Notes: generated by a model from the letters alone, not told the origin. A DNA stretch of 64,000 nucleotides from Thermoplasmata archaeon (GCA_027314915.1 DAHUZZ010000010.1:3221-67220), one strand, 5' to 3'. Shown: positions 8,869 through 63,938, counted from the stretch's first letter. A program made the numbers and translations.

Positions 8869-9573
8869 TCAGGTCGGCGAGAGGAGCCGCTCGCGCGGCA
8901 TCAGCCGTTCCATGAACCGCAGGAGAAGCAGCACGAGGAGGACCACGACCAGCACCGCCGCGCCGGGGAGGGCGAGCGAGTCGGCGCGGCCGGTGGCGAT
9001 CGCGGCGATGAGCGTGAGCAGCGACGGCGCGACCCCGAGGATGGGCACGAGCCCGATGGGGCTGTTCATCCCCTCCCGCGGGGAGGAGAGGGAGGTCCAG
9101 AACATCCCGACGGTCGCCGCGAACGCGACGGAGGCGAACGACATCGGGAGGGAGTAGCCGAGGAGGAGCTCGGTGACGGAAAGCGGGAACGGCCGGCCCC
9201 GGCCCAGCGAGAGGAGGAGCGCGACCGACATGCTGACCGCGAGGACGATCGCGACCAGGATGCAGCTCGCCCCGAGGACGTTCGCGAAGAGCCGCCGGGG
9301 GGAGATCCCGTAGGCGATCAGGTACTCGAAGACGCCCTTGATCCGGTCGCTGGTGAAGACCATGAGGGCGCCCATGCCGCCGAGCGCGGCATACACCGGG
9401 ACGAGGAGGGCGCCGTACCCGCCGAAGCTCTCGGCCGCGAACCCGAGCCCCACCGCGAAGAGCGAGGAGAAGACGCAGCCGAGGACGAGGTAGACCCGAC
9501 CGCTGGTGATCGCCCGCCGTACCGTGATCCCGAAGAGCGAGGGCGGGGCGTCCGCGGGGTCGGGGCTCGTCAT
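8869..9573 (-). CDS. ABC-2 type transporter permease
   Basis: ORF track, 234 aa and polytopic. Lies directly upstream of the ATPase on the same strand. Confidence 0.75.
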   Translation of the reverse strand: MTSPDPADAPPSLFGITVRRAITSGRVYLVLGCVFSSLFAVGLGFAAESFGGYGALLVPVYAALGGMGALMVFTSDRIKGVFEYLIAYGISPRRLFANVLGASCILVAIVLAVSMSVALLLSLGRGRPFPLSVTELLLGYSLPMSFASVAFAATVGMFWTSLSSPREGMNSPIGLVPILGVAPSLLTLIAAIATGRADSLALPGAAVLVVVLLVLLLLRFMERLMPRERLLSPT

Positions 9574-9639
9574 CCGGACCCCGGTGCAGCCCCGGGAGCG
9601 ATAAGGCGTTCGTGGCGGAGGCCTTCCCGTCGGGATGCC

Positions 9640-10507
9640 CCGGGGCCGGCCCGCCGGCCGGAGCGGCCGCTAGGTACCGGTAGCTGTACACGGGCCGCCG
9701 CGCGAGGATCGGGAGGAGCAGGCAGAGGGCGATGAGCGGGATCAGGAAGAGGACGTAGACCACGGCGTGGCCGAACCTCCAGAAGACGACCTGGTGGGTG
9801 AGCGGGCTCAGCGACCAGCCGCCGTAGGCGGCCCCCAGGTCCCAGAGGGCGGCGACGAGGAGCGGCACGTAGGTGAGCGGCAGAAGGACGAGGGGGCCCG
9901 TGACGAACCACAGGAAGACCGGGCACCGGAACCCGGAGGCGAGCGCGCGGCTCGGGCGGAACCACTCCACGGGGTGCAGGACGACCCACCCCGTCCAGAG
10001 GAGGACGGCCGCCGCGAGGGCGATCCAGCCCCGGAAGAAGAGGGGGCTCACGACGTCGGCGCTCTGGCCGGCCACGCCGAGGGGCGAGAGGAAGTACCAG
10101 CCGATGGCCGGGAAGTAGTTGTCGTTCAAGGGCGCGAGGTAGACCGGGCCCTGGAGGAGGAGCCCCCCGTCGAAGAGCCCGGCCACCGCCTCGAGCGTCC
10201 ACTTCCGCCGCGGCACGAGGCTGAGGGCGTGGATTACGAGGAGCCCGGGGACCGCGAGCTCGATCTGCTGGGCGAAGCCGAAGAGCTCGCGGATGCCGTG
10301 GAGGGTGAGCGAGGAGTAGATCTCCTGCCTCGAGGGGTGGAGCTCGGAGCCGTGCGCGCAGGCGACCACCTGGCTCGGGTACCCGAAGGCGTCGAAGCCC
10401 CCCACCGCGCCCCAGAAGAACCCGGCGTTGAGCATCCGCATCGAGATGCGGGTCATCCCGTCGCGCTCGAGCAGGAAGATCCGGCGCAGCGGCCGGAGCT
10501 GGGCCAC
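9640..10507 (-). pseudogene. truncated heme-copper oxidase subunit I-like remnant (helices I to VI/VII only)
   Basis: N-terminal ~280 aa of ORF 8789..10507. YSSLTLHGIRELFGF resembles YNxxxTxHGxxMIFF. HQVVFWRFGHAVVYVLFLIP resembles LFWFFGHPEVYILILP. The His-to-His spacing is about 177 aa. Homology stops before the HH motif, and the rest of the ORF is R/P/G-rich and overlaps the permease. Confidence 0.6.
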
Positions 10508-11491: not shown

Positions 11492-12841
11492 ATGGTGGAA
11501 CCGATCCGAGTCGTGCTGGATGCCGACGAGCTGCCGAAGTCCTGGTACAACCTGCCCGCCGACCTTCCCGAGCCGCTCCCGCCGCCCCTCGATCCGGAGC
11601 GGCGGGAGCCGATCGGGCCGGAAGCGCTCGAGCCGATCTTCCCGAAGGAGCTGATCCGCCAGGAGGTGAGCCGGGAGCGGTTCCTCCCCATCCCCGAGGA
11701 GGTCCGCGAGGCCTACCTGCTGCTCAACCGACCCTCCCCGCTGCAGCGGGCCCACCGGCTCGAGCGCTACCTGCGCACGCCGGCCCGGATCTACTTCAAG
11801 CGGGAGGACCTGAGCCCGACCGGCAGCCACAAGTCCAACACCGCCTTCGCGCAGGCCTACTACAACCGGCGCGAGGGCACGGAGCGGCTGGTGACCGAGA
11901 CCGGCGCCGGCCAGTGGGGGACCGCCCTCGCGCTCGCGGCCAAGCAGTTCGGGCTCGCCTGCACGGTGTTCATGGTCCGCGCGAGCTACGACCAGAAGCC
12001 CTACCGGCGGGTCGTCATGAACCTCTACGGGGCGGAGGTGACGCCCTCGCCGAGCGAGCGGACCGAGTTCGGCCGGGGCCTCCTCGCCCGGCAGCCCGAC
12101 CACCCGGGGTCGCTCGGGATCGCCATCAGCGAGGCGCTCGAGCACGCGCTCGGCTCGCCGGGGACGAAGTATGCCCTCGGCAGCGTCCTCAACCACGTGC
12201 TGCTGCACCAGAGCGTGATCGGGCTCGAGGCCCAGCGGCAGTTCGAGAAGATCGACGTGCGCCCGGACTACATCATCGGCTGCGTGGGCGGCGGGAGCAA
12301 CTTCGCCGGCTTCGCGTATCCGTTCCTGGGCGAGCGGCTGCGGAGCGGCCGCGGCGAGGACGGCCCCCAGTTCCTCGCCGTGGAGCCCGTCGACATCCCC
12401 TCCATGACCCGGGGACGGTACGAGTACGACTTCGGCGACTCGGCCCAGCGCACCCCGCTCCTCAAGATGTACACCCTGGGCTCCTCCTTCGTACCCTCGC
12501 CCATCCACGCGGGGGGGCTCCGCTACCACGGCGCGGCGCCGAGCCTGAGTGCCCTCGTCGACCGGGGGCTCGTACGGGCGATCGCGGTGGGCGAGGCCGA
12601 GAGCTTCGAGGCCGGGCGGATCTTCGCCGCCACGGAAGGGATCGTCCCCGCCCCCGAGTCGAACCATGCCGTCCGGGCGGCCATCGACCTCGCGATCGCG
12701 GCCAAGCGGAGCGGCGAGCCGACCACGATCGCCTTCAACCTCTCCGGCGGCGGGCTCCTCGACCTGGCCGGGTACGCCGAGCACCTCCGGGACGCGCCGA
12801 CGCTCGAGGCGGCCGCCGGACCGGTCGCCGTCCGGGCGTGA
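11492..12841 (+). CDS. trpB2: TrpB-like PLP-dependent enzyme (tryptophan synthase beta, type 2)
   Basis: ORF track. N-terminal [13 protein letters not shown] and the PLP-lysine motif GSHKSNTA. Confidence 0.92.
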
Positions 12842-16426: not shown

Positions 16427-16887
16427 GCCGCCGGGTCGTCCGCACCGCGGTCTCGCTCGAACCGGAGCTGCTGCGCGAGCTCGACCGGTGGTCGCGGATG
16501 CGCAACGCGAAGAGCCGTTCCGACGCCATCCGGGCGTTGGTCCGCCGGGAGGTCGCGGAGGAGCGGCTCGAGGACCCGACGGCCGACGCCGTCGGGACGG
16601 TGATGGTCCTCTACGACCACCGCTCGCGCGACGTGCAGCGCCGGCTCACCGTGGCGCAGCACCGCTGGGGCGAGCACATCCGGTCCTCGAACCACGTCCA
16701 CCTGGAGGGCGACCTCTGCCTCGAGGTGATGGTCCTCGTGGGCGCACGCGAGGAGATCGTCCGGGCCTCGACCGACCTCCGCGGCGTGAAGGGGGTCCAG
16801 CAGGGAGGGTTCCTCCTCGCGACCCCCGAGGCGGCCGGAGGACGGAGCGGGCACGTGCACCCCCACCGGTCGCCCGGCCCTTCCTAG
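16423..16887 (+). CDS. nikR: nickel-responsive transcriptional regulator NikR
   Basis: Tail of ORF 15058..16887. ATG 16423 overlaps the NiCoT stop (ATGA). Ribbon-helix-helix N-terminus VSLEPELLRELD...RSDAIRALV and a His-rich C-terminal metal-binding domain. Confidence 0.85.
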   Translation: MSRRVVRTAVSLEPELLRELDRWSRMRNAKSRSDAIRALVRREVAEERLEDPTADAVGTVMVLYDHRSRDVQRRLTVAQHRWGEHIRSSNHVHLEGDLCLEVMVLVGAREEIVRASTDLRGVKGVQQGGFLLATPEAAGGRSGHVHPHRSPGPS

Positions 16888-17855
16888 GCGGCCCCGGGGC
16901 CCCAGGAACGCTCGCGGTCGAACCGCACGCCGACCCGGCTCCCCTCCTCGGGGGCCGGCCCGCCCCGGGGGAAGCGCGAGGAGAGGACCGTGCCGTCCTC
17001 GAGGCGCAGCCGGACCCACCAGTCCCGGCCCACCGGGCCGATCGCCTCGACCGTGGCCGGGCGGCGGCCCGGCCCGGGGCGGTCGATCGCCACGTCCTCC
17101 GGCGCCACGGCGGTCGTGCGGGGGCCCTCGGTCACCAGGTTGTAGCCCAGGAACCGGGCCACCTCGGGCGAGGCCGGGCGGTCGAAGACCTCCGAGGGGC
17201 TCCCCACCTGGGCCACGCGGCCCGCGAGGAGGAGGATCGTCCGCTCGCCCAGGTAGAGCCCCTCCTCCCGGTCGTGCGTGACGTGGAGGGCGGCCGTGCC
17301 CTGGTCGCGGAGGATGCGCCGGAAGTCGCTCCGCAGCTCGGCGCGGTACTCCGGGTCGACGGAGGCGAACGGCTCGTCCAGCAGCACGAGCTCCGGATCG
17401 GGCGCGAGCGCGCGGGCGAGCGCGACCCGCTGCTGCTCGCCGCCGGAGAGCTCGGCCGGGTACCGCGCGGCGAACCGGCCGAGGTCCAGCCGCTCGAGCA
17501 GCTCCGCGACCCGCGCGCGCACCTCGGGATCGGGCCGCCGCTGGACCAGGAGCCCGTAGGCCACGTTCTCGACCACGGTGCGGTGCGGGAAGAGCGACGG
17601 CTCCTGCGGCACCATCCCGATCCCCCGGCGGTGCGTGGGGAGCGCCCCGATCTCCCGCCCCCCGAGCCGGATCGATCCCGACCGGGGCCGCTCGAGCCCG
17701 GCGAGGCACCGGAGCAGCGTGGTCTTGCCCGAGCCGTTGGGACCGAGCAGGGTCACGAGCTCGTGCGGCCCCACGTCGAGGTCCACGTCGCGGAGCACCG
17801 GGACCCGGTCCCACTCGGCCGAGAGCCCGCGGACGACGAGGAGCTCAGAGCTCAA
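16884..17855 (-). CDS. ABC transporter ATP-binding protein (thiamine/iron-type importer, with C-terminal TOBE-like domain)
   Basis: ORF track. Walker A GPNGSGKTT, signature LSGGEQQR, Walker B LVLLDEP. Confidence 0.9.
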   Translation of the reverse strand: MSSELLVVRGLSAEWDRVPVLRDVDLDVGPHELVTLLGPNGSGKTTLLRCLAGLERPRSGSIRLGGREIGALPTHRRGIGMVPQEPSLFPHRTVVENVAYGLLVQRRPDPEVRARVAELLERLDLGRFAARYPAELSGGEQQRVALARALAPDPELVLLDEPFASVDPEYRAELRSDFRRILRDQGTAALHVTHDREEGLYLGERTILLLAGRVAQVGSPSEVFDRPASPEVARFLGYNLVTEGPRTTAVAPEDVAIDRPGPGRRPATVEAIGPVGRDWWVRLRLEDGTVLSSRFPRGGPAPEEGSRVGVRFDRERSWGPGAA

Positions 17856-19470
17856 TCCGCCGCCCTCCCACCTCGATCAGGGCGAACACCCCGAGGCTCA
17901 GCAGCACGAGCAGCGCGCCCGCCGCGGCCTCGGCGAGCGGCAGCCGGAGCTCCCCCAGGCGGAGCAGCTCCACGGGGACGGTCGTGAACTCCGGCAGGTA
18001 GAGGAAGAAGGTGGCGGTGAACTCGCCGAGCCCGATCGCGAAGGCGAAGAGCGCCGCCGAGAGGAGGCCGCGCCGGGCCCGGGGGAGGTCGATGTCGAGG
18101 AAGGCCGCCCAGGGGGAGCTCCCCAGCGCCTGGGCGGCCTCCCACGGCGCGGGGCCGATCCGGTCGACCGCCAGCGTGAGCGACTGGAGGACGAAGGGGA
18201 GCGCGACCGTCGCCTGGGCGAGGAGGAGGAGCGCCCAGGTGTCCCCGGGACCCCCGAGCGCCGGCCGCCAGAGGGTCGCGAGCCCGAAGGCGAGGAGCAC
18301 CGGGGAGACCAGGACGGGGAGGAAGACGACGAACTCGAGCCCCCGGTTCCGCCGACGGGACACCCGGCGCGCGAAGACGGTCAGGAGGGCGAGGAGGAGG
18401 GCGAGGATCGCCGCCCCCGTGGCCAGGAAGAGGCTGTTGCCGATCGCCCCGGCGGTGGTGATCCCGAGCCGGTCCGCGAGCCCGGGGTCGAAGAGCTCGC
18501 GCCACCCCGCGAGGGTGACCGCGCCGGCGGGGGTGAGGACGCTCCGCAGGAGCACCGCGGCGAGCAGCCCGACGATCGCGAGCACGAAGAGGACGGTGTA
18601 GGCGAGCCCGGCCCAGGCGAGCGGGCCGGCGCGGCGGAGGGAGCGTTCCGGCGCGGCCGACGGGGCGACCCGCCGGTGGGCCCGGTCGCGGACGAGCAGG
18701 TAGGCGACGGTGGGGACGGCGAGGAGGAGGAGGGCGAGGAGGCCGAGCACGCCGGCGGCCGCCGGTTGACCGAGCACCTCGGCGAGCGACCAGATCCTCA
18801 CCTCGAGGGTGTAGCAGCTCGCCCCGCAGATCACGAGCGGCGCGGCGAACCCCATGGCGCTCAGGAGGAAGGTGAGGAGCATCCCCGCGCCCGCGCCGAG
18901 CCACGAGAGCGGTCCCCAGATCTCCGCGTAGCCCCGCGCGGGCGAGCCCCCGAGGAGCGCGACCGCCTCCTCCTGGGTCCGGGAGCCGCCCGCGACCGCC
19001 GTCGCCGTGAGCAGCGCGACCAGGCTCGAATCGAAGTAGGCGTTCACCGCGAGGATGCCGACCAGGCCGTGGCCGAGCGCGCCGAGCGGCGGGAGCGCCC
19101 CCGCGACCCATCCGCCGGGCCCGAAGAGCTGGCCGAAGCCGAGGATGACGACCAGGCTCGGCAGCAGGAAGGGCACGAGGAGGAAGGCGCTCAGCGCCTC
19201 CCGGCCGGGGAAAATGTACCGGCCGAGCGTGAGCCCCACGGGGTAGCCGATCGCCCCGGCGAGGGCGGCGCTCAGGCCGCCCTGGAGGAGCGAGTTCGAG
19301 AGCGCGGCCCGGTCGAGCGGGTCGCCGGCGACCCGGGCCACCTCCCCCGCGCCGCCGCCCGCGAGCAGGGACCCGCCCAGGACGACGGCGAGCGGGAGCC
19401 CCACGAACGCCGCGACGAAGATCAGGACGGGGAGCAGCGACCGGTCCGGCGCGGGGGATCCCCGGTTCAT
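17845..19470 (-). CDS. ABC importer permease with two fused transmembrane domains (ThiP/FbpB-like)
   Basis: In frame in ORF 17845..19635. Start at ATG 19470 overlaps the stop of the upstream binding-protein gene (ATGA). Confidence 0.85.
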
Positions 19471-20636
19471 CCCGCCGAGTTCACCGTGGCCTGCCACGTA
19501 TCGATCCAGCCCGGGAGCTGCGCGGCCACGCTCGAGGGAGGGATCGCGCCGTTCAGGGCCACGATCCCGCTCACGTTCGGGGCGTCCTGGTAGACGGGCG
19601 GCAGCGGGACCGTCGCGTTCGCCGGGTACTCCCACTCCTCCGTCGGGAGCCCGGCCTGGACCGGCCCCGCGAGGAGCGCCTGGAGGAACGCCTCATCGAG
19701 CCCCAGGTGCGGCGAGCCCCGCACGATCGCCGCGCCGTAGACGCTCCTCCAGCCGTACTCGGTCCCGTTCCACCAGCTCCCCGAGGAGGCGATCGAGCCC
19801 GGCGCCCCGTACGCGGCCGCGTAGGCGGGGTCCGTCAGGTAGCTCACCACCATCTGGGGGGCGGAGGGCGCGCAGGTGAACGCGGAGAAGGCGGTGCCCC
19901 ACGAGTCCGCCGTGGTCACGTGGGGCGCCACGGCGCTCCACCACGGGGCCCACGGGGCGTGGAGCACCTCGGTGTAGAACGCGATCTCCCAGAGGAGGAA
20001 CTCCTCCCCGGTGATGTCGGAGGTCGGGTCCTCGACGATGAGGTTGCCGGCGAGGGTCGAGTTCGCGGCGAACCCGGGGAAGCTCGGCTGCCGGGCCGGG
20101 AGGGTCGCGTTCGCGAACGGGCCGCAGGCATCGAAGCCCAGGTAGCCCCACTCGTAGGGGGTGGCGGCATGGTCCGGGCTGAGCTCCGAGGCGAGCGAGG
20201 GGCTCACCGACGCGAGGGCCGGGGGCGCGTACGGCACGAGCACGCCCGCGGCCTCCGCCTGCGGCGTGGTCACCTCATCGAGCCCGACGACCAGGTCCGC
20301 GACGGGGGCGGACTTCTCCGCGATGAGGGTCCCCGCGAGCGTGCCCGCCGGGCAGAGGAACCGGAGGCTCACGTCGTGCGCCCGCTCGAACCCCGCGAAG
20401 ACGGTCGAGGCGTTCTGCCCGCAGCCGCCGCCCAGGAAGGAGGGGTAGGTGTAGATCGTGAGGACCGTGCCGTGGCTCCGGGTCGCGAGGTACCCGTACG
20501 TGGCGTAGCCGGCCACGAGGACGATCAGGGCGACCACCGAGACCAGCAGGTACCGGCCGAGCCGCCCGCGCCGCAGCGGCCCGAGGGCCGTCGGGTCCGT
20601 GCCGCGTGCGCCCGCCCGTTCCGTCGCCGAGTTCAT
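19467..20636 (-). CDS. ABC importer substrate-binding protein, probably thiamine/TPP-related
   Basis: ORF track, 389 aa with an N-terminal TM/signal anchor. First gene downstream of the TPP riboswitch. Confidence 0.8.
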
Positions 20637-20655
20637 CCGGTCCCGCTGCCTGCGG

Positions 20656-20762
20656 GGGGAGCTGTTAGCCGCGGCACCGCGTTCCCTTCGCGGGGATTGC
20701 CCCGATCAGGTTCAAGGGGTCGACAGGTTGGGCCTGTCCTCTCAGCCGAGCCACAGCTCCCC
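20656..20762 (-). promoter_or_regulatory. TPP (THI-box) riboswitch
   Basis: The minus-strand RNA reads GGGGAGCUGUGGCUCGGCUGAGAGGACAGGCCCAACCUGUCGACCCCUUGAACCUGAUCGGGGCAAUCCCCGCGAAGGGAACGCGGUGCCGCGGCUAACAGCUCCCC. Conserved CUGAGA, ACCUGAUC and GCGAAGGGAA cores are present. P1 is a perfect 9 bp helix (GGGGAGCUG/CAGCUCCCC). Confidence 0.9.
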
Positions 20763-20787
20763 CAGCGTCCCCGGCAACGTGGGCGGG

Positions 20788-53873: not shown

Positions 53874-53897
53874 GCTCGCGTCCCGGCTGGAACGCGC

Positions 53898-54812
53898 ATG
53901 GCGACGGAGCCCCTCGCCGCGCCGTTGCCCGTGGTCGGCGCGGGCCGGCTGCCGTCGTGGATCTCCGTGCGCCCGCCGCGCGGGCAGTACCCCGAAGTGC
54001 GGTCCCTCCTCGACGGGCTCGCCCTCGGCACCGTGTGCCGGGAGGCGCACTGCCCGAACCTCTCCGAGTGCTGGTCGGCCGGCACGGCGACGCTCCTGCT
54101 GCTCGGCACCGACTGCACCCGGCGCTGCGGTTTCTGCGCGGTCCGGACCCGGTCGCCCCATGGCCGCCTCGACCCGACGGAGCCCGCGCGCGTCGCGGAG
54201 GGGGTCCGCCGCTGGGGGCTCCGGTACGTCGTGCTCACGCAGGTCTGCCGCGACGACCTCCCCGATGGCGGGGCCGGGATCCTGGCGGAGACCGTGGCGC
54301 GGATCCGGAGGGAGTCGCCCGGGACGCTCATCGAGCTCCTCGTCGGGGACCTCGGCGGATCGCCGGAGAACCTGCGCACCCTCCTCGCGGAGCCGCCGGA
54401 CGTCCTCGCGCACAACCTCGAGACGGTCCGGCGCCTGAGCCCGACGGTGCGGGACCGCCGGGCGGGCTATGCGAGGTCGCTCGAGCTCCTCGCGCAGGTG
54501 AAGGAGCTCGGGGGACCCGGGCAGGTCACCAAGAGCTCGATCATGCTCGGGCTCGGCGAGGACCGCGGGGAGCTCACCGAGAGCTTCCGCGACCTCCGGG
54601 GGAGCGGCGTCGACCTCCTCACCCTCGGGCAGTACCTCCGGCCCTCGGCCGGGCACGTGGCCGTGGAGCGGTACGTGACGCCGGGGGAGTTCGACGAGCT
54701 GCGGTCGGGCGCGCTCGCGGAGGGGTTCTCGGGGGTCGAAGCGGGCCCCCTGGTGCGGAGCTCGTACCGGGCCGAGGAGCTATATCGTCGCGCGGCCGCC
54801 CGGGGCCGTTAG
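53898..54812 (+). CDS. lipA: lipoyl synthase
   Basis: ORF track. CPNLSECWSAGTAT and the radical SAM motif CTRRCGFCAV. Confidence 0.92.
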   Translation: MATEPLAAPLPVVGAGRLPSWISVRPPRGQYPEVRSLLDGLALGTVCREAHCPNLSECWSAGTATLLLLGTDCTRRCGFCAVRTRSPHGRLDPTEPARVAEGVRRWGLRYVVLTQVCRDDLPDGGAGILAETVARIRRESPGTLIELLVGDLGGSPENLRTLLAEPPDVLAHNLETVRRLSPTVRDRRAGYARSLELLAQVKELGGPGQVTKSSIMLGLGEDRGELTESFRDLRGSGVDLLTLGQYLRPSAGHVAVERYVTPGEFDELRSGALAEGFSGVEAGPLVRSSYRAEELYRRAAARGR

Positions 54813-55193: not shown

Positions 55194-56604
55194 CGGCGCC
55201 GTCCGGGACGAGCCAGGGGAGCCGCTTGACGAGCAGCTCGCCCAGCGCGAGCTCGAGCTCCGGGACCTCGTGCGCCCGGTCGAGCGGGACGAACCGGTCC
55301 TCCGCGCGGAGCGATCGCGTGAGGTCGCGCCCGAGCGAGATCCGGTCCATGTGCCGGTTCAGCGCCGCCTCGAGCCCCGGCTCCCCCCGGCGCGTCTCCA
55401 CGGCGAGCCGTCCGTCCTCGGCGACGAACGGCCCCTGGAGGACCGGCGCCGAGGGATCGGTCCACTTGGCGAGGAACTGGGCGACGCGATCCGGCCCGGG
55501 CGGCGGGCCGTCCTGGGACCGCACCTCGGAGAGCGCCGCGGGGTCCGCCTCGAGCAGGATCGTGACCGTCGCCTCGCTCGCCGCGAACGCGCTCCCCACG
55601 ACGGTGAAGCCGGCCCGGCGGGCCTCCTCCGCGATGGCCCGGGCCCCCTTGGCGAGCTGCGGGTAGACGATGTCGTCGACCAGCCTCGGGCGGGGGAGGG
55701 TGAGCGCCACGACGTGGGTCCGGCGGGCGCGGATCCGTTCGAGGGCGCCCGCGCGGCCGAGCCGGGCGGCCGGGCGGGGCCGGAAGAACCTCGGGTCCGG
55801 CGCGGCGAGGTAGGCCTGCGCCGCGAGGAGGAGGAGGGTGAAGTTCCGGCGCGAGAGCGCGCTCGTCACGTTCCGGTGGGGGTCGACCGGGTCGTCGAGG
55901 AGGAGCGGTACCTCGGCCGGGACCCTCGGGGAGGAGCCCGGGGTGAACACGATCCGGACCGGCGGGGTGAAGGTGCGGGCCGCGGCGAGCAGCTCGTCCA
56001 GGGACCCGTACTTGAGGATCAGGAGCTCGACGGCGTACCCGGAGAGCCCCTGGGTCTTGGCCTCGGAGCCGTAGATCCCCTGCGCCCGGAGGAACTGCTT
56101 GGCGAGCCGGGTCTCCTCGATGAGCTCCGGGGTCTGGTGGGTCCGCAGGTACTCGTGGTGGAACGGGGTGCGGTCGACCGCCGTCTGCGGGTGCGAGGGG
56201 TCGCGGATGGCGTAGCCGGGAACGGCGTCGACCTGGAACCCCTCGTACGTCCCGCGCAGGTAGGGGTGCTCCGCGTACCGCGTCTCCGCGGTCTCGAAGA
56301 GGAGGCCCGCGAGCTGGAGCCCGTGCGACTCGAGGTCGGCCCGGGGCAGCTCGGGCGGGAAGAGCAGGAAGAGGTCGATGTCCACCCGGTCGCTGAGGAA
56401 GGTGCCGCGCGCGGCGCTGCCGGCCACGACGGCGCGCACGAGCGGCAGGTGGTGCTCGTGCGCCTTCCGGGCGGCGAGATCGAGGAGCCGTCCACGGACG
56501 CCGGCGACCCGGTCGAGCATCTCCGCCGTCGGGGCGATCTCCCGGCGCACCTCCGCCTCGATCGACGCGAGCTTCGGGGGCCGACCCCCGGTGGGACCCG
56601 GCAC
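55183..56604 (-). CDS. cca: CCA-adding enzyme (archaeal class I tRNA nucleotidyltransferase)
   Basis: ORF track, 473 aa. GSAARGTFLSDRVDIDLFLLF nucleotidyltransferase motif; AEHPYLRG...VDAVPGY. Confidence 0.9.
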   Translation of the reverse strand: MPGPTGGRPPKLASIEAEVRREIAPTAEMLDRVAGVRGRLLDLAARKAHEHHLPLVRAVVAGSAARGTFLSDRVDIDLFLLFPPELPRADLESHGLQLAGLLFETAETRYAEHPYLRGTYEGFQVDAVPGYAIRDPSHPQTAVDRTPFHHEYLRTHQTPELIEETRLAKQFLRAQGIYGSEAKTQGLSGYAVELLILKYGSLDELLAAARTFTPPVRIVFTPGSSPRVPAEVPLLLDDPVDPHRNVTSALSRRNFTLLLLAAQAYLAAPDPRFFRPRPAARLGRAGALERIRARRTHVVALTLPRPRLVDDIVYPQLAKGARAIAEEARRAGFTVVGSAFAASEATVTILLEADPAALSEVRSQDGPPPGPDRVAQFLAKWTDPSAPVLQGPFVAEDGRLAVETRRGEPGLEAALNRHMDRISLGRDLTRSLRAEDRFVPLDRAHEVPELELALGELLVKRLPWLVPDGAASS

Positions 56605-56720
56605 GACGGGCGGGAGGGCCCCGGGGGCTTAGGACTTTGGATGGCGGGCCGGAGCCCTCCCGAGCGGCCGCCACGAAACCGTCATTCCCCGCCGGGGGCT
56701 GCGTCCCCGCGGGGGGATCC

Positions 56721-57797
56721 ATGGCCGAGGCCGCGCCGGCACCCGAGCACGAAGCGATCCTCTACGAGCCGCTGCCCGAGGGCAAGGTGCGCTGCACGGC
56801 CTGCGCCCGCTACTGCATCATCCCCCCCGGGTCCCACGGGTTCTGCTACGTCCGAGCGAACGTCGGCGGAAAGCTCGACCTGCTCGTCTACGGCCGGGTC
56901 GCGGCGCTCCAGGTCGACCCGGTCGAGAAGAAGCCGCTCTCGCACTTCCACCCCGGCACCCGGGTGCTCTCCCTGGGGACGGTCGGGTGCAACTGGCGGT
57001 GCCGGTACTGCCAGAACGCCGAGATCTCGCAGGAGAGCGCGGTCGCGGGCCGTTCCTACTCGCCGCGGCAGATCGTCCGCCGGGCGGTCGAGCTCGGCTG
57101 CCAGGGGGTCACCTTCACCTACAACGAGCCCACGATCTTCCTCGAGTACGCCCTGGACGTCATCGAGGCGGCGCACGCGGAGGGGCTCTTCACGAACTTC
57201 GTGACGAACGGCTACCTGACGCCGGAGGCGGTCGGGCTCCTCGGACCGAAGCTCGACGCCATCTCCGTCGACTTCAAGGGGAGCGGCGAGGAGCGCTTCA
57301 TGCGGAAGTACATCACCGCGAAGGGCCCCGCCCCCATCCTCTCGACGCTGACCGATCTGCGGCGCCACGGGGTCCACATCGAGGTCACCGACCTGATCGT
57401 CCCGGAGGTCGGGGAGGACGACGCGGCGCTCCAGGAGCTCGCGCGGTTCGTCGTCCGCGAGCTCGGACCGGCGACGCCGTTCCATCTCCTGAGGTGGCAC
57501 CCGGACTACCGGATGTTGGAGTTCCCGGTCACCCCGATCCCGACGCTCGAACGGCTCCACCGGCTCGCCGTCGCCGAGGGGCTCGAGTACGTCTACCTCG
57601 GCAACGTCTGGGGCCACCCGCTCGAGCACACCTACTGCCCGGCGTGCCACGCGGTCGCCATCGAGCGCTACGGGTTCATGATCCGGGCCTGGAACCTGGA
57701 TGCGGGCCATCGGTGCCGGGCGTGCGGCCATACGATCCCGATCGTCGGCCAGCTGCCTCCGGCGTACACTCCGGCCGGGGCGCTGCCGGTCCTGTGA
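56721..57797 (+). CDS. AmmeMemoRadiSam-system radical SAM enzyme
   Basis: In frame in ORF 56637..57797 from ATG 56721. N-terminal CTACARYCIIPPGSHGFC cluster motif, VDPVEKKPLSHFHPG, and the radical SAM motif GCNWRCRYCQN. Confidence 0.85.
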   Translation: MAEAAPAPEHEAILYEPLPEGKVRCTACARYCIIPPGSHGFCYVRANVGGKLDLLVYGRVAALQVDPVEKKPLSHFHPGTRVLSLGTVGCNWRCRYCQNAEISQESAVAGRSYSPRQIVRRAVELGCQGVTFTYNEPTIFLEYALDVIEAAHAEGLFTNFVTNGYLTPEAVGLLGPKLDAISVDFKGSGEERFMRKYITAKGPAPILSTLTDLRRHGVHIEVTDLIVPEVGEDDAALQELARFVVRELGPATPFHLLRWHPDYRMLEFPVTPIPTLERLHRLAVAEGLEYVYLGNVWGHPLEHTYCPACHAVAIERYGFMIRAWNLDAGHRCRACGHTIPIVGQLPPAYTPAGALPVL

Positions 57798-60931: not shown

Positions 60932-61190
60932 ACCGGGTCCGGGCCGCCCGGCCCCCGCCGACGGGGGCCCCGGGGACCCTTCGATCGAACGGCACGGTCC
61001 GGACCGCGTTCGGTCGTGCGATGTCGAACGAGGACGTTACCGGCGCGGCGAGGCCCCGTGGACGGGCTCGGTGATCCGGTCCCCGGGCCCCGCCCTCGGC
61101 CCCGAGCTCGGGACCCCCGGCCCCGGGGGGCCAGTACGCACCGCCTTTACTTCAACGGACCCCGGCATCCCTGAGGCCGGGGGGGGTCCC

Positions 61191-62306
61191 GTGGCATCCA
61201 CGGACGCGTCTCGGTTCGAGCAACGTCCCGTACTGGTCTTCTGGGAGCTGACCCGCGCCTGTCCCCTCGCGTGCGCGCACTGCCGGGCGTCGGCCATCCG
61301 AGAGCGGCTGCCGGGGGAGTTGAGTACGGCCCAGGGGAATACGCTGCTCGAGAGCCTGCGCGACTTCGGACCGCCGTATCCGACGCTCATCCTCACCGGA
61401 GGCGACCCGCTGTCCCATCCCGATCTCTGGGCGATCATCGCCCGTGCCCGGGCGCTCGGCCTCCATGTGGCGGTCTCGCCGGCCGTCTCCCCGCGGCTCT
61501 CTCGGGCCGTCCTGGACCGCTTTCGTGCGCTCGGCGTCGCGTCGATCTCCCTCAGCTTGGACGGCGCCCAGGCGTCGACCCACGAGACGCTCCGGCAGAG
61601 CCCGGGACACTTCGCGCAGACCCTGGAGGCCATCGACCTCGCCCAGGACGCCGGTCTGCGGGTCCAGGTCAACTCGACCGTCACCGGGGCGAGCGCGGCG
61701 GAATGGCCGGAGTTGTTCCAGCTCCTGCGCGACCGCGGGGTCCCCGTCTGGGAGGTCTTCTTCCTGATCCGGACCGGACGCGGGGCCGGTCTCAGCGAGC
61801 TCACCCCATCGGAGGCCGAGGACGTCTGCCACTTCCTCTACGACGCCTCCCAGTATGGGATGGTCATCCGGGCCGTCGAGGCCCCGTTCCTCCGCCGGGT
61901 CCTCCGCGCCCGGCAGGCCGGCGCGCCGCCGCCGCCGAGCCCGCTCTATCGGTCGCTCCGGAGCCGGCTCGAAGGGTCGGCCGGACCGGCCGCGCGTCCC
62001 AGCAGCCTCGCCCCCGTCGGCACCCTCGACGGGGACGGGATCCTCTTCATCGGGCATGATGGGACGATCCATCCCGGAGGACTCGCTCCCGAGGCGCTGG
62101 GCAGGTTCCCGGAACGGCGCCCGGCGGAGGTCTATCGGTCGTCGCCGACGCTGCGGTCGATCCGCCGCCGGGAGTTCCACGGAGCGTGCGGCCGCTGCGC
62201 GCATCGGGCGTACTGCGGCGGGAGCCGGGCCCGCGCGCTCGCGGCGACCGGCGACATCCTCGGGACGGATCCGGCATGCCTCCGGGCGGCATCCGCCGAG
62301 GCGTGA
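61191..62306 (+). CDS. radical SAM enzyme with C-terminal SPASM/Twitch-like Cys cluster (TIGR04053/AhbD-NirJ-like)
   Basis: In frame in ORF 60756..62306 from GTG 61191. FWELTRACPLACAHCRA (Cx3Cx2C). The C-terminal ACGRCAHRAYCGGS...DPAC provides 4 Cys. Confidence 0.85.
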   Translation: MASTDASRFEQRPVLVFWELTRACPLACAHCRASAIRERLPGELSTAQGNTLLESLRDFGPPYPTLILTGGDPLSHPDLWAIIARARALGLHVAVSPAVSPRLSRAVLDRFRALGVASISLSLDGAQASTHETLRQSPGHFAQTLEAIDLAQDAGLRVQVNSTVTGASAAEWPELFQLLRDRGVPVWEVFFLIRTGRGAGLSELTPSEAEDVCHFLYDASQYGMVIRAVEAPFLRRVLRARQAGAPPPPSPLYRSLRSRLEGSAGPAARPSSLAPVGTLDGDGILFIGHDGTIHPGGLAPEALGRFPERRPAEVYRSSPTLRSIRRREFHGACGRCAHRAYCGGSRARALAATGDILGTDPACLRAASAEA

Positions 62307-62803
62307 CCCCGGTGACGAACCTCCTCGACGCGGCGGTCCTGTACACCCACCTGGTCGCGGCGGTCCTGTTCGTCGGCGGCTCCTTCTTCATCTGGTTCGT
62401 CGTCGATCCGGTCTCCTACCAGCTGACCAGCGACGAGTCCTCGCGCACGGCGCTCGTCGGTCGGGTCGCGCGTCAGTTCGGTCGATGGGTGAACGTCCTG
62501 CTCCTCGTCCTCGTCCTCACCGGATTGTTCAACGCGTGGGTGTACCTGGCATCGCCCGGCACCGGGTGGGGCTCCGCCGCCGCGGACGTGCTGCTGGTGA
62601 AGATCGGGGTCGTCGGGCTCCTCATCGCGCTCATCTACCTCCACGGCGCCTACTACGGGCCACGGATCGTGCGGCTGGCCCGAGAAGGGAAGCTCGACCA
62701 ACTGCGAGCCCTGCGCCGTCGGAGCCGCGTCATCTCCTACGTGAACCTGGCCCTGATGCTGGCCGTTCTGTTCCTCGCCGTTCTCCTGCAGACGCCGCCG
62801 TGA
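62303..62803 (+). CDS. 4-TM CopD/HemJ-like membrane protein
   Basis: In frame in ORF 62186..62803. GTG 62303 overlaps the radical SAM stop (GTGA). His in TM1 (VLYTHLVAAVLFVGG) and His in TM3 (LIYLHGAYYG). Confidence 0.7.
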   Translation: MTPVTNLLDAAVLYTHLVAAVLFVGGSFFIWFVVDPVSYQLTSDESSRTALVGRVARQFGRWVNVLLLVLVLTGLFNAWVYLASPGTGWGSAAADVLLVKIGVVGLLIALIYLHGAYYGPRIVRLAREGKLDQLRALRRRSRVISYVNLALMLAVLFLAVLLQTPP

Positions 62804-63810
62804 CGGGTTCGATGGGGGCCTTACCGACGGCCGCACCGGGGACCCGCGGCCCCCTTCCGTCCGGGGGCGCCGCGGCGGGTCGCTCGACCTCCGCGGTCCT
62901 CCTCATGGCCTTGGGCGCGCCGACGTCGCTGGACGAGGTCGAGCCGTTCCTTCGCGATCTGCGGGGCGGACGGCCCACGCCACCCGAGCTCATCGAGGAG
63001 TTCCGGGAGCGCTATCGACGGATCGGGGGGGCGTCTCCGTTGCTCGAGGTCTCGCGGTCCCAGGCCGCCGCCCTCGAGCGTCGCCTCGCCGACCGTGGAT
63101 GGCCGGTCCCGTGCACGGTCGGGATGCGACACTGGGCGCCCCGGATCGATGCGGCGGTCCGCGAGCTCTCCGCGGCCGGCGTTCGCGACCTGGTGGCGCT
63201 CTCGCTGACCCCGTACTACTCGAACTGGAGCGTGGGCGGCTACCTGGACGCGCTGCGGGCCGCCGTCTCCGCGAGCGGCGCGTCTTTGAGGATCCATCCC
63301 GTCCGAAGCTGGCATCGCTCGCCGTCGCTCGCCGAGGCGTTCGCGGCCCGGGTGCGGGAGGGGAGGTCGGCCCTGGCCGCCTCGGGCGCTGCGGACCCTT
63401 ACGTCCTCTTCACCGCCCACAGCCTGCCGGAAGGACCGGAGAGCGACACCGAAACGTACGTGCGGCACCTGGACGAGGCGCGCGCGGCGATCCTGGGCCG
63501 GCTGCCCCCGGTCCGGTCCGCGATGGCCTACCAGAGCGTCGGTCGTCGGGGCGGCTCGTGGCTGGGCCCGTCGATGGAGGCCCGCCTGGACGAGCTGACC
63601 CACGCGGGGGAACGATCCGTGCTCGTGGTGCCGTACGGTTTCGTCTCGGACAATCTCGAGATCCTGTACGACATCGATATCGAGCTGCGGGCCCGGGCCG
63701 ACGAGCGCGGGATCCGGCTCGAACGGACCCCCTCCCTCAACGCAGACCCGGGTCTCGTCGAGGCCATGGCGGAGGCGGTGCTCGCGGTCCGGCCGGGACG
63801 TCCCGACTGA
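62800..63810 (+). CDS. hemH: ferrochelatase (HemH/CpfC type)
   Basis: Tail of ORF 61855..63810. GTG 62800 overlaps the upstream stop (GTGA); an alternative ATG is at 62812. Motifs VLLMALGAPTSLDEVEPFL, FTAHSLPE and VVPYGFVSDNLEILYDIDIE. Confidence 0.9.
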   Translation: MTGSMGALPTAAPGTRGPLPSGGAAAGRSTSAVLLMALGAPTSLDEVEPFLRDLRGGRPTPPELIEEFRERYRRIGGASPLLEVSRSQAAALERRLADRGWPVPCTVGMRHWAPRIDAAVRELSAAGVRDLVALSLTPYYSNWSVGGYLDALRAAVSASGASLRIHPVRSWHRSPSLAEAFAARVREGRSALAASGAADPYVLFTAHSLPEGPESDTETYVRHLDEARAAILGRLPPVRSAMAYQSVGRRGGSWLGPSMEARLDELTHAGERSVLVVPYGFVSDNLEILYDIDIELRARADERGIRLERTPSLNADPGLVEAMAEAVLAVRPGRPD

Positions 63811-63938
63811 ACTCGAAGATCGCTACCATCCAAGAGATGGCGTACGGATTCCGGAACGAGTCGCACTTCCGGACGGCGGTGCTGTTCCGTGGTGGAGGCC
63901 TATCACTCTACCCGGGGACCCCCGACAAGCCCGGATGA
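63810..63938 (+). mobile_element. C-terminal remnant (~42 codons) of a DDE transposase (ISL3-like AYGFRN motif)
   Basis: Reading from directly after the hemH stop: LNSKIATIQEMAYGFRNESHFRTAVLFRGGGLSLYPGTPDKPG*. There is no upstream transposase body. Sequence from here to 64000 is visibly less GC-rich. Confidence 0.5.

Follow-up and report, generated by a model that had tools for sequence, protein, structure and literature searches.

In reviews, heme synthesis in archaea is described as siroheme-dependent, and the coproporphyrin-dependent (CPD) route, known in its canonical form from Firmicutes and Actinobacteria with the enzymes UroD, CgoX/HemY, CpfC/HemH and ChdC/HemQ, plus CgoN, is regarded as almost confined to Gram-positive bacteria. 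Here we analyze a 64,000-nucleotide stretch of DNA from a Thermoplasmata archaeon (GCA_027314915.1 DAHUZZ010000010.1:3221-67220; hereafter the window, whose positions are used as coordinates throughout), in which three adjacent open reading frames (ORFs) encode a radical S-adenosylmethionine (SAM) protein (ORF1), a small membrane protein of the CopD/HemJ superfamily (ORF2) and a HemH-type ferrochelatase (ORF3). The trio very probably constitutes a heme module. New here are the architecture of an archaeal CPD-type cluster and, with ORF2, a candidate from the CopD/HemJ superfamily for the missing coproporphyrinogen oxidase.

Two families of membrane proteins provide the closest described systems for ORF2. 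In cyanobacteria and many Gram-negative bacteria, protoporphyrinogen IX is oxidized without O2 by HemJ, also termed PgdH2, a membrane-bound enzyme that contains heme b. Copper proteins of the CopD/YcnJ type usually comprise about eight helices and are paired or fused with CopC. Both HemJ and CgoN were discovered by the same route, namely as a conserved unassigned gene at a gap in the pathway, followed by complementation or assay.

For archaea, such a gap is on record: Picrophilus and Thermoplasma possess hemE and hemH in the absence of hemF/N/G/Y or ahb-nir genes, and their route was called unclear (Storbeck et al. 2010, PMC3004389). The occurrence of HemH in an archaeon, which the initial annotation of this locus had treated as unexpected, is therefore no novelty, as hemE together with a HemH-type ferrochelatase has been documented in Thermoplasmatales since 2002-2010. 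The structure of ChdC from T. acidophilum has been solved (3DTZ), and a recent survey of ferrochelatases left out the archaeal ones. A 2024 survey of 2,978 archaeal genomes scored the CPD route as complete in some Halobacteria, in a single Hydrothermarchaeota genome and nowhere else (PMC11459464), a sparse distribution that fits an unrecognized oxidase step elsewhere. In our literature search, which is not proof of absence, no paper was found that names TIGR04053, the family of ORF1, or ties a CopD-like protein to heme synthesis. Thus, the module of three genes appears to be undescribed, as first assumed, but the idea of an AhbD-like enzyme in an anaerobic CPD route is an already published proposal.

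The three ORFs are located on the plus strand at 61191-62306, 62303-62803 and 62800-63810, as initially annotated, in a window with a G+C content of 73%. The window is archaeal, since it encodes Orc1/Cdc6, an archaeal-type CCA-adding enzyme and a Kdo/APH-type kinase; among named organisms, the nearest relatives of ORF1 and ORF2 come from Thermoplasmata metagenome-assembled genomes (MAGs). GTGA tetranucleotides are indeed present at both junctions (62303-62306 and 62800-62803), but the N-termini of homologues and gene calls partly point to other start codons. In an alignment of 28 ORF2 homologues, most sequences begin two to four residues ahead of a conserved LL..VL..HL segment, which is better fitted by the in-frame GTG at 62312 (MTNLLD...), five nucleotides past the ORF1 stop, than by 62303. 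For ORF3, both GTG 62800 and ATG 62812 are possible starts. On contig DAHVBW010000035.1 (GCA_027315845.1), which is 99.8% identical to the window over 11.5 kb, public annotation places the starts at 61071, 62276 and 62812. Whichever starts are chosen, the genes of the trio overlap or lie less than 10 nucleotides apart, and relatives are packed alike, with a 6-nucleotide gap and a 4-nucleotide overlap in L001 and a 4-nucleotide overlap in L010 (L numbers denote the loci collected for comparison). Such tight packing implies co-translation of ORF1, ORF2 and ORF3. Upstream, the AT-rich stretch CTTTACTTCAA at 61145-61155 (plus strand), 36-46 nucleotides ahead of the ORF1 start, holds the sole 8-mer with at least six A/T between 60900 and 61200, and 8-mers of this kind account for 0.33% of window positions. 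Judged by its AT content, this stretch is a possible archaeal TATA-like promoter element, and its location favors 61191 as the start of ORF1.

The 371-residue ORF1 (61191-62306) was assigned to the radical SAM family TIGR04053, an NCBIfam equivalog, with 418.6 bits against a cut-off of 395 (residues 8-364 on model positions 2-363). The AhbD model TIGR04545 was second-best at 224.7 bits, under its cut-off of 500, and was followed by the NirJ and AhbC models; radical SAM proteins encoded in the heme clusters of relatives stay under the same cut-off as well (261-346 bits versus 500). The motif CPLACAHC (CX3CX2C) occupies residues 24-31. The C-terminal Cys set CX2CX5CX20C spans residues 333-363 (CGRCAHRAYC...X20...C) and suffices for one auxiliary cluster, as had been noted from the sequence before; the fourth SPASM Cys position is taken by Ser, and the Cys pattern is the same in the eight other family members checked. 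Across all AhbDs, CX3CX2C and a C-terminal CX2CX5CX20-38C are conserved (Fix et al. 2023, PMC10452713), and AhbDs from non-methanogenic archaea keep the AuxII site alone, with the AuxI cysteines replaced by Glu and Ser (PMC10452713). Compared with this description, the pattern of ORF1, in which the AuxI cysteines are likewise absent, is that of the non-methanogenic AhbDs. ORF1 differs from AhbD in its score below the AhbD cut-off, in being filed by NCBI in the separate and unnamed family TIGR04053, and in the company kept by its family, which consists of uroD, cpfC and chdC instead of ahbABC. Members of TIGR04053 were found in CPD clusters of both bacteria and archaea, as anticipated in the proposal of an 'AhbD-like' enzyme for bacteria that run the CPD route anaerobically. 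The profile check against TIGR04053 and AhbD thus bears out the AhbD-like character that had been suspected, and from family and context we propose that ORF1 is likely to be an O2-independent coproheme decarboxylase.

ORF3 (62800-63810; 336 residues, or 332 from ATG 62812) is a HemH-type ferrochelatase closest to CpfC. It scores 238.5 bits with Pfam Ferrochelatase (PF00762) and 187.9 bits with TIGR00109 (cut-off 124.6), and a weak match to CbiX was also obtained (E 0.00079). The ferrochelatase motifs FTAHSLPE and VSDNLEILYDID are both present, and the equivalents of the catalytic His182 and Glu263 are kept. The suggested CpfC type of the enzyme agrees with the comparison to solved structures, in which the best relatives are all coproporphyrin ferrochelatases, namely those of Listeria (163.6 bits), B. 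anthracis and B. subtilis (150.7 bits), versus about 90 bits for human PpfC, in a comparison that included no bacterial PpfC; the best CpfC match has an E value of 6e-47. The residues holding the substrate in Listeria CpfC, among them T14, Y46, S53 and Y124 for propionates 2 and 4 (PMC9794026), served as a reference, and R29, R45, Y46, S53, Y124, H182 and E263 of this enzyme are conserved in ORF3, whereas Y12 and T14 are not. These features suggest that ORF3 quite probably makes coproheme by insertion of Fe2+ into coproporphyrin III. In L018, from Nitrososphaerales, two ferrochelatase paralogues (9047-9880 and 11811-12674) flank the CopD-like and radical SAM genes; both exceed the TIGR00109 cut-off and are 36% and 38% identical to ORF3.

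ORF2 (62303-62803; 166 residues, or 163 from GTG 62312) is a stand-alone four-helix membrane protein of the CopD/HemJ superfamily and our candidate for a coproporphyrinogen III oxidase/dehydrogenase. Pfam reports CopD at 46.6 bits (gathering score 32.1) and DUF4149 at 29.8 bits, and CopD is matched by 28/28 homologues. AlphaFold2, run with the family alignment, predicts four long helices with high confidence (predicted local distance difference test score, pLDDT, of 91.5), consistent with the annotated protein of four transmembrane segments with His residues in the first and third: helix 1 contains His16, and the end of helix 3 bears His115. All 28 homologues share His16 and Lys100, and 25 of them have His115. 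A Foldseek search of the PDB with the model returned generic four-helix bundles alone (best E 0.54), a sequence-profile search of the PDB returned no relatives, and the family, PDB and fold searches revealed nothing that resembles established heme chaperones or transporters. Scanning 1.84 billion representative proteins with the family profile recovered 869 relatives at E <= 1e-10, nearly all of them stand-alone proteins of 160-170 residues; no Rosetta-stone fusion of the ORF2 module to a heme enzyme was seen in this library, the long matches being CopC-CopD fusions alone. Cluster look-ups aimed at homologues in cultured Thermoplasma or Picrophilus yielded MAG names only. In the draft assembly of the cultured Thermoplasmatales species Thermogymnomonas acidicola JCM 13583, the ORF2-family gene (L082, 10001-10472) is split into two tblastn segments by a stop codon or frameshift, which may reflect either a pseudogene or an error in the sequence.

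To describe the genomic distribution, one genome per species was scanned with the ORF2 family alignment as seed. The 73 loci returned are nearly all archaeal and belong to Thermoplasmatota (including Cuniculiplasma and Thermogymnomonas acidicola), Nitrososphaerota, Bathyarchaeia and Marsarchaeota. By tblastn, a TIGR04053-type gene adjoins the ORF2 homologue in 31/73 loci, and in 15/73 a ferrochelatase gene does so too. Within the window's clade of a neighbour-joining tree, the window included, the radical SAM gene is adjacent in 13/13 cases and the ferrochelatase gene in 12/13; other clades with an adjacent radical SAM gene are scattered across the tree. The trio occurs in the same order in L001, L002/L003 and L010/L011 and is also present in the sister contigs L005-L007, and L008 and L009 carry the ORF2-family and radical SAM genes as a pair alone. 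Synteny is thus conserved in relatives and throughout the window's clade, and since the arrangement recurs in many genomes it is beyond chance. In Thermoplasmatales proper, Bathyarchaeia and Marsarchaeota, the ORF2-family gene sits elsewhere than beside a radical SAM gene.

At six archaeal loci (L018, L020, L024, L030, L056 and L078), the pair of ORF2-family and radical SAM genes abuts a heme cluster. All six clusters carry hemB, hemC, hemL, uroD (hemE) and chdC, and most add hemA, hemD and a ferrochelatase gene. L018 has the order HemA-HemC-HemD-HemB-ChdC-HemL-UroD-ferrochelatase-CopD-like, with the radical SAM gene convergent, the second ferrochelatase gene beyond it and no room for a further gene. 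L020, L024, L056 and L078 are variants of this cluster; the L078 contig ends inside uroD, so that its ferrochelatase gene is not visible, with UroD and ChdC encoded there. In L030, from a Thermoplasmata MAG of the window's clade (ORF1 62% identical), the trio is followed 3 kb further on by UroD-HemL-ChdC-HemB and HemC. UroD, CpfC and ChdC are hence encoded together in L018, L020, L024, L030 and L056, and the window itself shows the ferrochelatase alone. In NCBIfam scans, cluster UroD proteins reached 379 and 375 bits with TIGR01464 (cut-off 303), the ChdC candidates had the HemQ model as their best match at scores below its cut-off, and all cluster radical SAM proteins tested passed TIGR04053. 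Taken together, family assignments, synteny and the membership of relatives in heme clusters support the view of the initial annotation that the trio is a unit of heme synthesis.

For comparison, a metagenome scan was seeded with the ferrochelatase, and the 80 closest loci, which are ordinary CPD clusters, were analyzed. By tblastn, 28 of these contain CgoX, 12 a TIGR04053-type gene and 2 a CopD-like gene; all-against-all clustering of their ORFs recovered UroD-like proteins in 47 loci and ChdC-like proteins in 24. CgoX and a CopD-like gene were found together in 0/80. Bacterial-type clusters combine UroD, ferrochelatase, CgoX and TIGR04053 without a CopD-like gene, in orders such as UroD-ferrochelatase-CgoX-radical SAM (L085), UroD-ferrochelatase-radical SAM-CgoX (L157), radical SAM...UroD-ferrochelatase-CgoX-ChdC (L143 and L149) and CgoX-radical SAM-ferrochelatase (Cryobacterium). 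Conversely, neither the window nor any of the 73 CopD-seeded loci contains a CgoX-like gene; CgoN was not searched for. The archaeal clusters therefore resemble the canonical CPD system in their UroD, CpfC-like ferrochelatase, ChdC and similar operon structure, and differ from it in having CopD-like and TIGR04053 genes instead of a CgoX-like gene. The place taken by CgoX in bacterial clusters is occupied here by the CopD-like gene, and CPD clusters of both domains regularly include TIGR04053. Starting at glutamyl-tRNA, the archaeal cluster covers all steps of the coproporphyrin route to heme but one, the oxidation of coproporphyrinogen III, a step without a known gene in these clusters, and contains exactly one unassigned gene, that of the conserved membrane protein in the CgoX slot. 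A separate group of metagenome loci with a G+C content of about 0.52 (L096, L104, L108, L110 and similar) has ChdC-UroD-ferrochelatase facing HemD-HemC-HemL-HemB-HemA, with no CgoX, CopD-like or radical SAM gene within 6 kb, which leaves the oxidase step unaccounted for. A gene in a gap of about 1 kb in low-GC metagenome heme clusters lacking CgoX was considered and dismissed, as its product, from reading the translation, is an aldo/keto reductase and not a membrane protein.

We therefore consider it an evenly balanced proposition that the trio forms the terminal part of a CPD heme pathway, with ORF2 as oxidase, ORF3 as chelatase and ORF1 as decarboxylase. UroD, presumably encoded elsewhere in the genome, would yield coproporphyrinogen III. 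ORF2 would oxidize it to coproporphyrin III at the membrane without O2, passing six electrons to a membrane acceptor such as a bound heme or quinone, as is thought for HemJ/PgdH2 with protoporphyrinogen. Following iron insertion by ORF3, which would give coproheme, ORF1 would use SAM and its [4Fe-4S] clusters to convert two propionates of coproheme to vinyl groups without O2, resulting in heme b. Wherever ChdC is present, ORF1 would act alongside this O2/H2O2-dependent enzyme. The genomic context makes ORF2 the best candidate for the missing coproporphyrinogen oxidase, an assignment whose chances we place slightly below even. More tentatively still, its family may represent a new archaeal coproporphyrinogen III oxidase/dehydrogenase, a half-size membrane enzyme of the CopD/HemJ superfamily that would stand beside CgoX and CgoN.

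A number of observations weigh against this proposal. The activities of ORF1, ORF2 and ORF3 are all predictions. Porphyrinogens autoxidize in air. No other heme gene, including chdC, cgoX and uroD, lies within the 64-kb window, and the scan covered loci, so that CgoX, CgoN, HemG or HemJ may be encoded elsewhere in a genome. The ORF2-family gene is not beside any heme gene in 42/73 loci, and no heme genes lie close to the family member on a 2.1-Mb contig; in Cuniculiplasma-type genomes it adjoins rpS7 and rpS12 (assigned by reading translations). Its pairing with the radical SAM gene is tighter than that with the ferrochelatase gene. Some genomes hold two or three ORF2-family paralogues (L033/L034/L067 in one Thaumarchaeota MAG, L043/L056 in another MAG), of which one copy alone adjoins a radical SAM gene; given such paralogues within one genome, the family may serve more than one function. 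In ORF3 and its Thermoplasmata clade, Tyr12 and Thr14 of Listeria CpfC are replaced by Leu and Ala, this clade being of the ALGAP type and the Nitrososphaerota relatives keeping AYGTP.

The comparison of ORF2 with HemJ adds to these points. PF03653, the HemJ family, was matched neither by ORF2 up to E = 10 nor by five further family members, and the NCBIfam scan of ORF2 gave no HemJ match at E <= 0.01. Alignment of the ORF2 family to HemJ with hhalign was weak (E 0.0097, probability 4%); at this level it pairs His16, Lys100 and His115 of ORF2 with the invariant His10, Lys91 and His102 of HemJ. The C-terminal module of two CopC-CopD fusions matches the ORF2 profile far better, with about 88 bits. 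In a three-way alignment, the His and Lys positions are common to the ORF2 family, HemJ and the CopC-CopD fusions, and therefore these residues do not indicate the function of ORF2. The placement of ORF2 in a superfamily that includes HemJ nevertheless finds support, as genuine HemJ proteins pass Pfam CopD too: all 120 cyanobacterial HemJ proteins retrieved carry precomputed PF03653 and CopD matches, and one HemJ scanned directly scored 167.9 bits with PF03653 and 35.7 bits with CopD, above the threshold. Because HemJ passes Pfam CopD, the CopD match of ORF2 does not imply a copper role. At the sequence level, copper-type CopD is a closer relation of ORF2 than HemJ is, which leaves some probability to rival roles.

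In its general features, ORF2 shares with HemJ/PgdH2 the small, stand-alone, helical build, the superfamily and the aligned helix 1 His and helix 3 Lys and His. HemJ was at its discovery, like ORF2, the sole unassigned conserved gene in heme clusters lacking a known porphyrinogen oxidase. The two differ in the missing PF03653 match, in the archaeal distribution of the ORF2 family and in the proposed substrate, coproporphyrinogen III instead of protoporphyrinogen IX. With CopD/YcnJ (PF05425, NF033808), ORF2 has in common the best sequence match and the motifs of the C-terminal four-helix module. It is, however, half the size and corresponds to the C-terminal module only: with the full-length NCBIfam CopD model NF033808 (about 295 residues, eight helices) it scores 30.7 bits versus 195, on model positions 151-292 only. 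It never lies beside copC, and its neighbors are heme enzymes instead of copper genes. A copC-linked CopD, a possibility raised at the outset, thus agrees with the nearest sequence type but not with the gene neighborhoods, in which no copC occurs near any family member; two CopC domains and two N-terminal modules of CopD, used as tblastn queries, had no match in the window or in L001-L164, and no recurring copper gene was seen among neighbors of the ORF2 family.

These data bear on other roles that ORF2 could play. It could handle metal as a CopD-type protein, either copper for heme-copper oxidase assembly, as CopD/YcnJ are thought to do, or iron for the ferrochelatase. We regard this as unlikely: the Pfam score above threshold, the match to the four-helix module of the CopC-CopD fusions with its shared His/Lys pattern, and a copper ATPase and HMA protein about 3 kb off in L008 speak for it, but CopC domains, CopD N-terminal modules and recurring copper neighbors are absent from the loci searched, and HemJ, a porphyrinogen oxidase, exceeds the Pfam CopD threshold as well. 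ORF2 might instead be the membrane partner of the radical SAM enzyme, anchoring ORF1 and accepting, by way of the auxiliary cluster, the electron released in each oxidative decarboxylation for transfer to a bound heme or quinone, with coproporphyrinogen being oxidized by something else or by air. The adjacency of the ORF2 family is indeed strongest with TIGR04053, the two genes often overlapping or being convergent, 16 of the 31 TIGR04053-adjacent loci have no adjacent ferrochelatase gene, L008 and L009 carry the pair alone, and the auxiliary cluster of AhbD has been proposed as an electron donor to an external acceptor (PMC10452713). As bacterial TIGR04053 genes in CPD clusters have no CopD-like neighbor, many ORF2-family members lie far from any radical SAM gene, and the archaeal clusters would still want an oxidase, we give this explanation a small chance. 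A role in handing over heme or porphyrin, as a membrane chaperone or exporter delivering heme b from ORF1 or ChdC to membrane cytochromes, seems improbable to us. A membrane protein with an invariant His beside the last enzymes of the pathway would suit it, and dedicated heme chaperones acting after ferrochelatase have precedents; yet ORF2 bears no likeness to known heme chaperones or transporters, and the complementary pattern with CgoX would go unexplained.

Two further explanations concern the pathway as a whole. The initial annotation had presented the trio as a self-sufficient hybrid of CPD and Ahb logic that replaces CgoX and ChdC in this genome. It was correct in placing CgoX/HemY and ChdC/HemQ outside the window, none being found within the 64 kb, and chdC, cgoX and uroD are equally absent from the 8-kb flanks of L001 and L002; moreover, L085, L157 and the Cryobacterium cluster combine CgoX, a radical SAM gene and ferrochelatase without a nearby chdC. 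Replacement of CgoX is compatible with the CopD-like gene in its slot, but that of ChdC conflicts with the co-occurrence of chdC in L018, L020, L024, L030, L056 and L078, namely in L030, which belongs to the clade of the window and has chdC and uroD at a distance of 3 kb from the trio, and in five other archaeal loci, where it lies in the cluster of the radical SAM gene. We consequently hold self-sufficiency to be doubtful. The trio is rather part of a CPD module, whose relatives hold uroD and chdC beside it or 3 kb off, than a free-standing hybrid. Since TIGR04053 sometimes sits with ChdC, it is to be seen as a second, probably anaerobic decarboxylase and not as a ChdC replacement, which matches genetic work in Haloferax: aerobic growth requires a ChdC-domain protein, and anaerobic growth requires AhbD. 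The other explanation is the siroheme-dependent (Ahb) route, in which ORF1 would be an ordinary AhbD and the ferrochelatase would act on another substrate such as sirohydrochlorin. The Cys pattern of ORF1 equals that of AhbDs assigned to non-methanogenic archaea, JGI labels many ORF1 homologues AdoMet-dependent heme synthase, and class II chelatases are mutually related, ORF3 having a weak CbiX match. This route is nonetheless highly improbable here: the uroD and chdC neighbors of relatives encode CPD enzymes, no second AhbC-like radical SAM match lies beside the pair in L001-L084 (ahbA/B were not directly searched), cultured Thermoplasmatales are devoid of ahb-nir genes (PMC3004389), and ORF3 matches CpfC with an E value of 6e-47.

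If the assignment of ORF2 as coproporphyrinogen oxidase is true, its family would complete the CPD heme pathway in Thermoplasmatota, Nitrososphaerota and other archaea and would explain heme synthesis in Thermoplasma and Picrophilus, which have hemE and hemH and no known oxidase. Among the loci collected here, clusters from several archaeal phyla come close to a full gene set of the coproporphyrin type, by which an old gap in archaeal heme synthesis becomes directly testable. The published proposal that an AhbD-like enzyme, which here would be TIGR04053, acts as the O2-independent coproheme decarboxylase of the CPD route gains genomic support as well; TIGR04053 often occurs alongside ChdC.

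Outside the module, a 3' remnant of an ISL3-family transposase gene (63811-63938, plus strand; PF01610 positions 216-239 of 240) flanks the trio, starting within about 3 nucleotides of the ferrochelatase stop codon. Its 43-residue peptide gives a weak ISL3 transposase match over the last 24 model positions (E 0.001; 19.3 bits, cut-off 23). Identity to the sister contigs L005 and L007 stops at 63812-63813, and L006 runs on through the remnant; past the junction (L005 11533 onward), L005 and L007 carry unrelated sequence encoding DUF2683, a ParE toxin and Rpr2. The position of the trio against this insertion sequence (IS) remnant had been taken as a sign of horizontal acquisition. As such a sign the remnant is rejected, because a 99.8%-identical sister contig lacks the remnant at the same junction, and the trio is conserved throughout the clade. 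The remnant is a strain-level breakpoint that is silent on how the trio was acquired.

Further genes in the surroundings were recorded. In two Thermoplasmata lineages, Peptidase_U32 and chorismate mutase (CM_2) genes flank the trio (L001 10729-12579; L010 7204-8755). U32 proteins include O2-independent hydroxylases that use prephenate and, if this applies, the two genes may be another anaerobic cofactor-synthesis pair near anaerobic heme genes. Less than 8 kb upstream of the trio, the window contains two more radical SAM genes on the plus strand (56397-57797 and 53874-54812), one with a lipoyl synthase N-terminal domain and the other with a Fer4_12 domain; these neighbors are kept in L005 and partly in L001. 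At 20665-20773 (minus strand), a thiamine pyrophosphate (TPP) riboswitch that exceeds its Rfam gathering score (RF00059, 57.3 bits) extends across the 5' end, counted stop to stop, of an ORF at 19467-20705 that has no Pfam match. This ORF is followed by genes for an ABC permease (17845-19692) and an ABC ATPase (16884-17876), and the riboswitch-led genes probably form a thiamine-regulated uptake operon in this archaeon.

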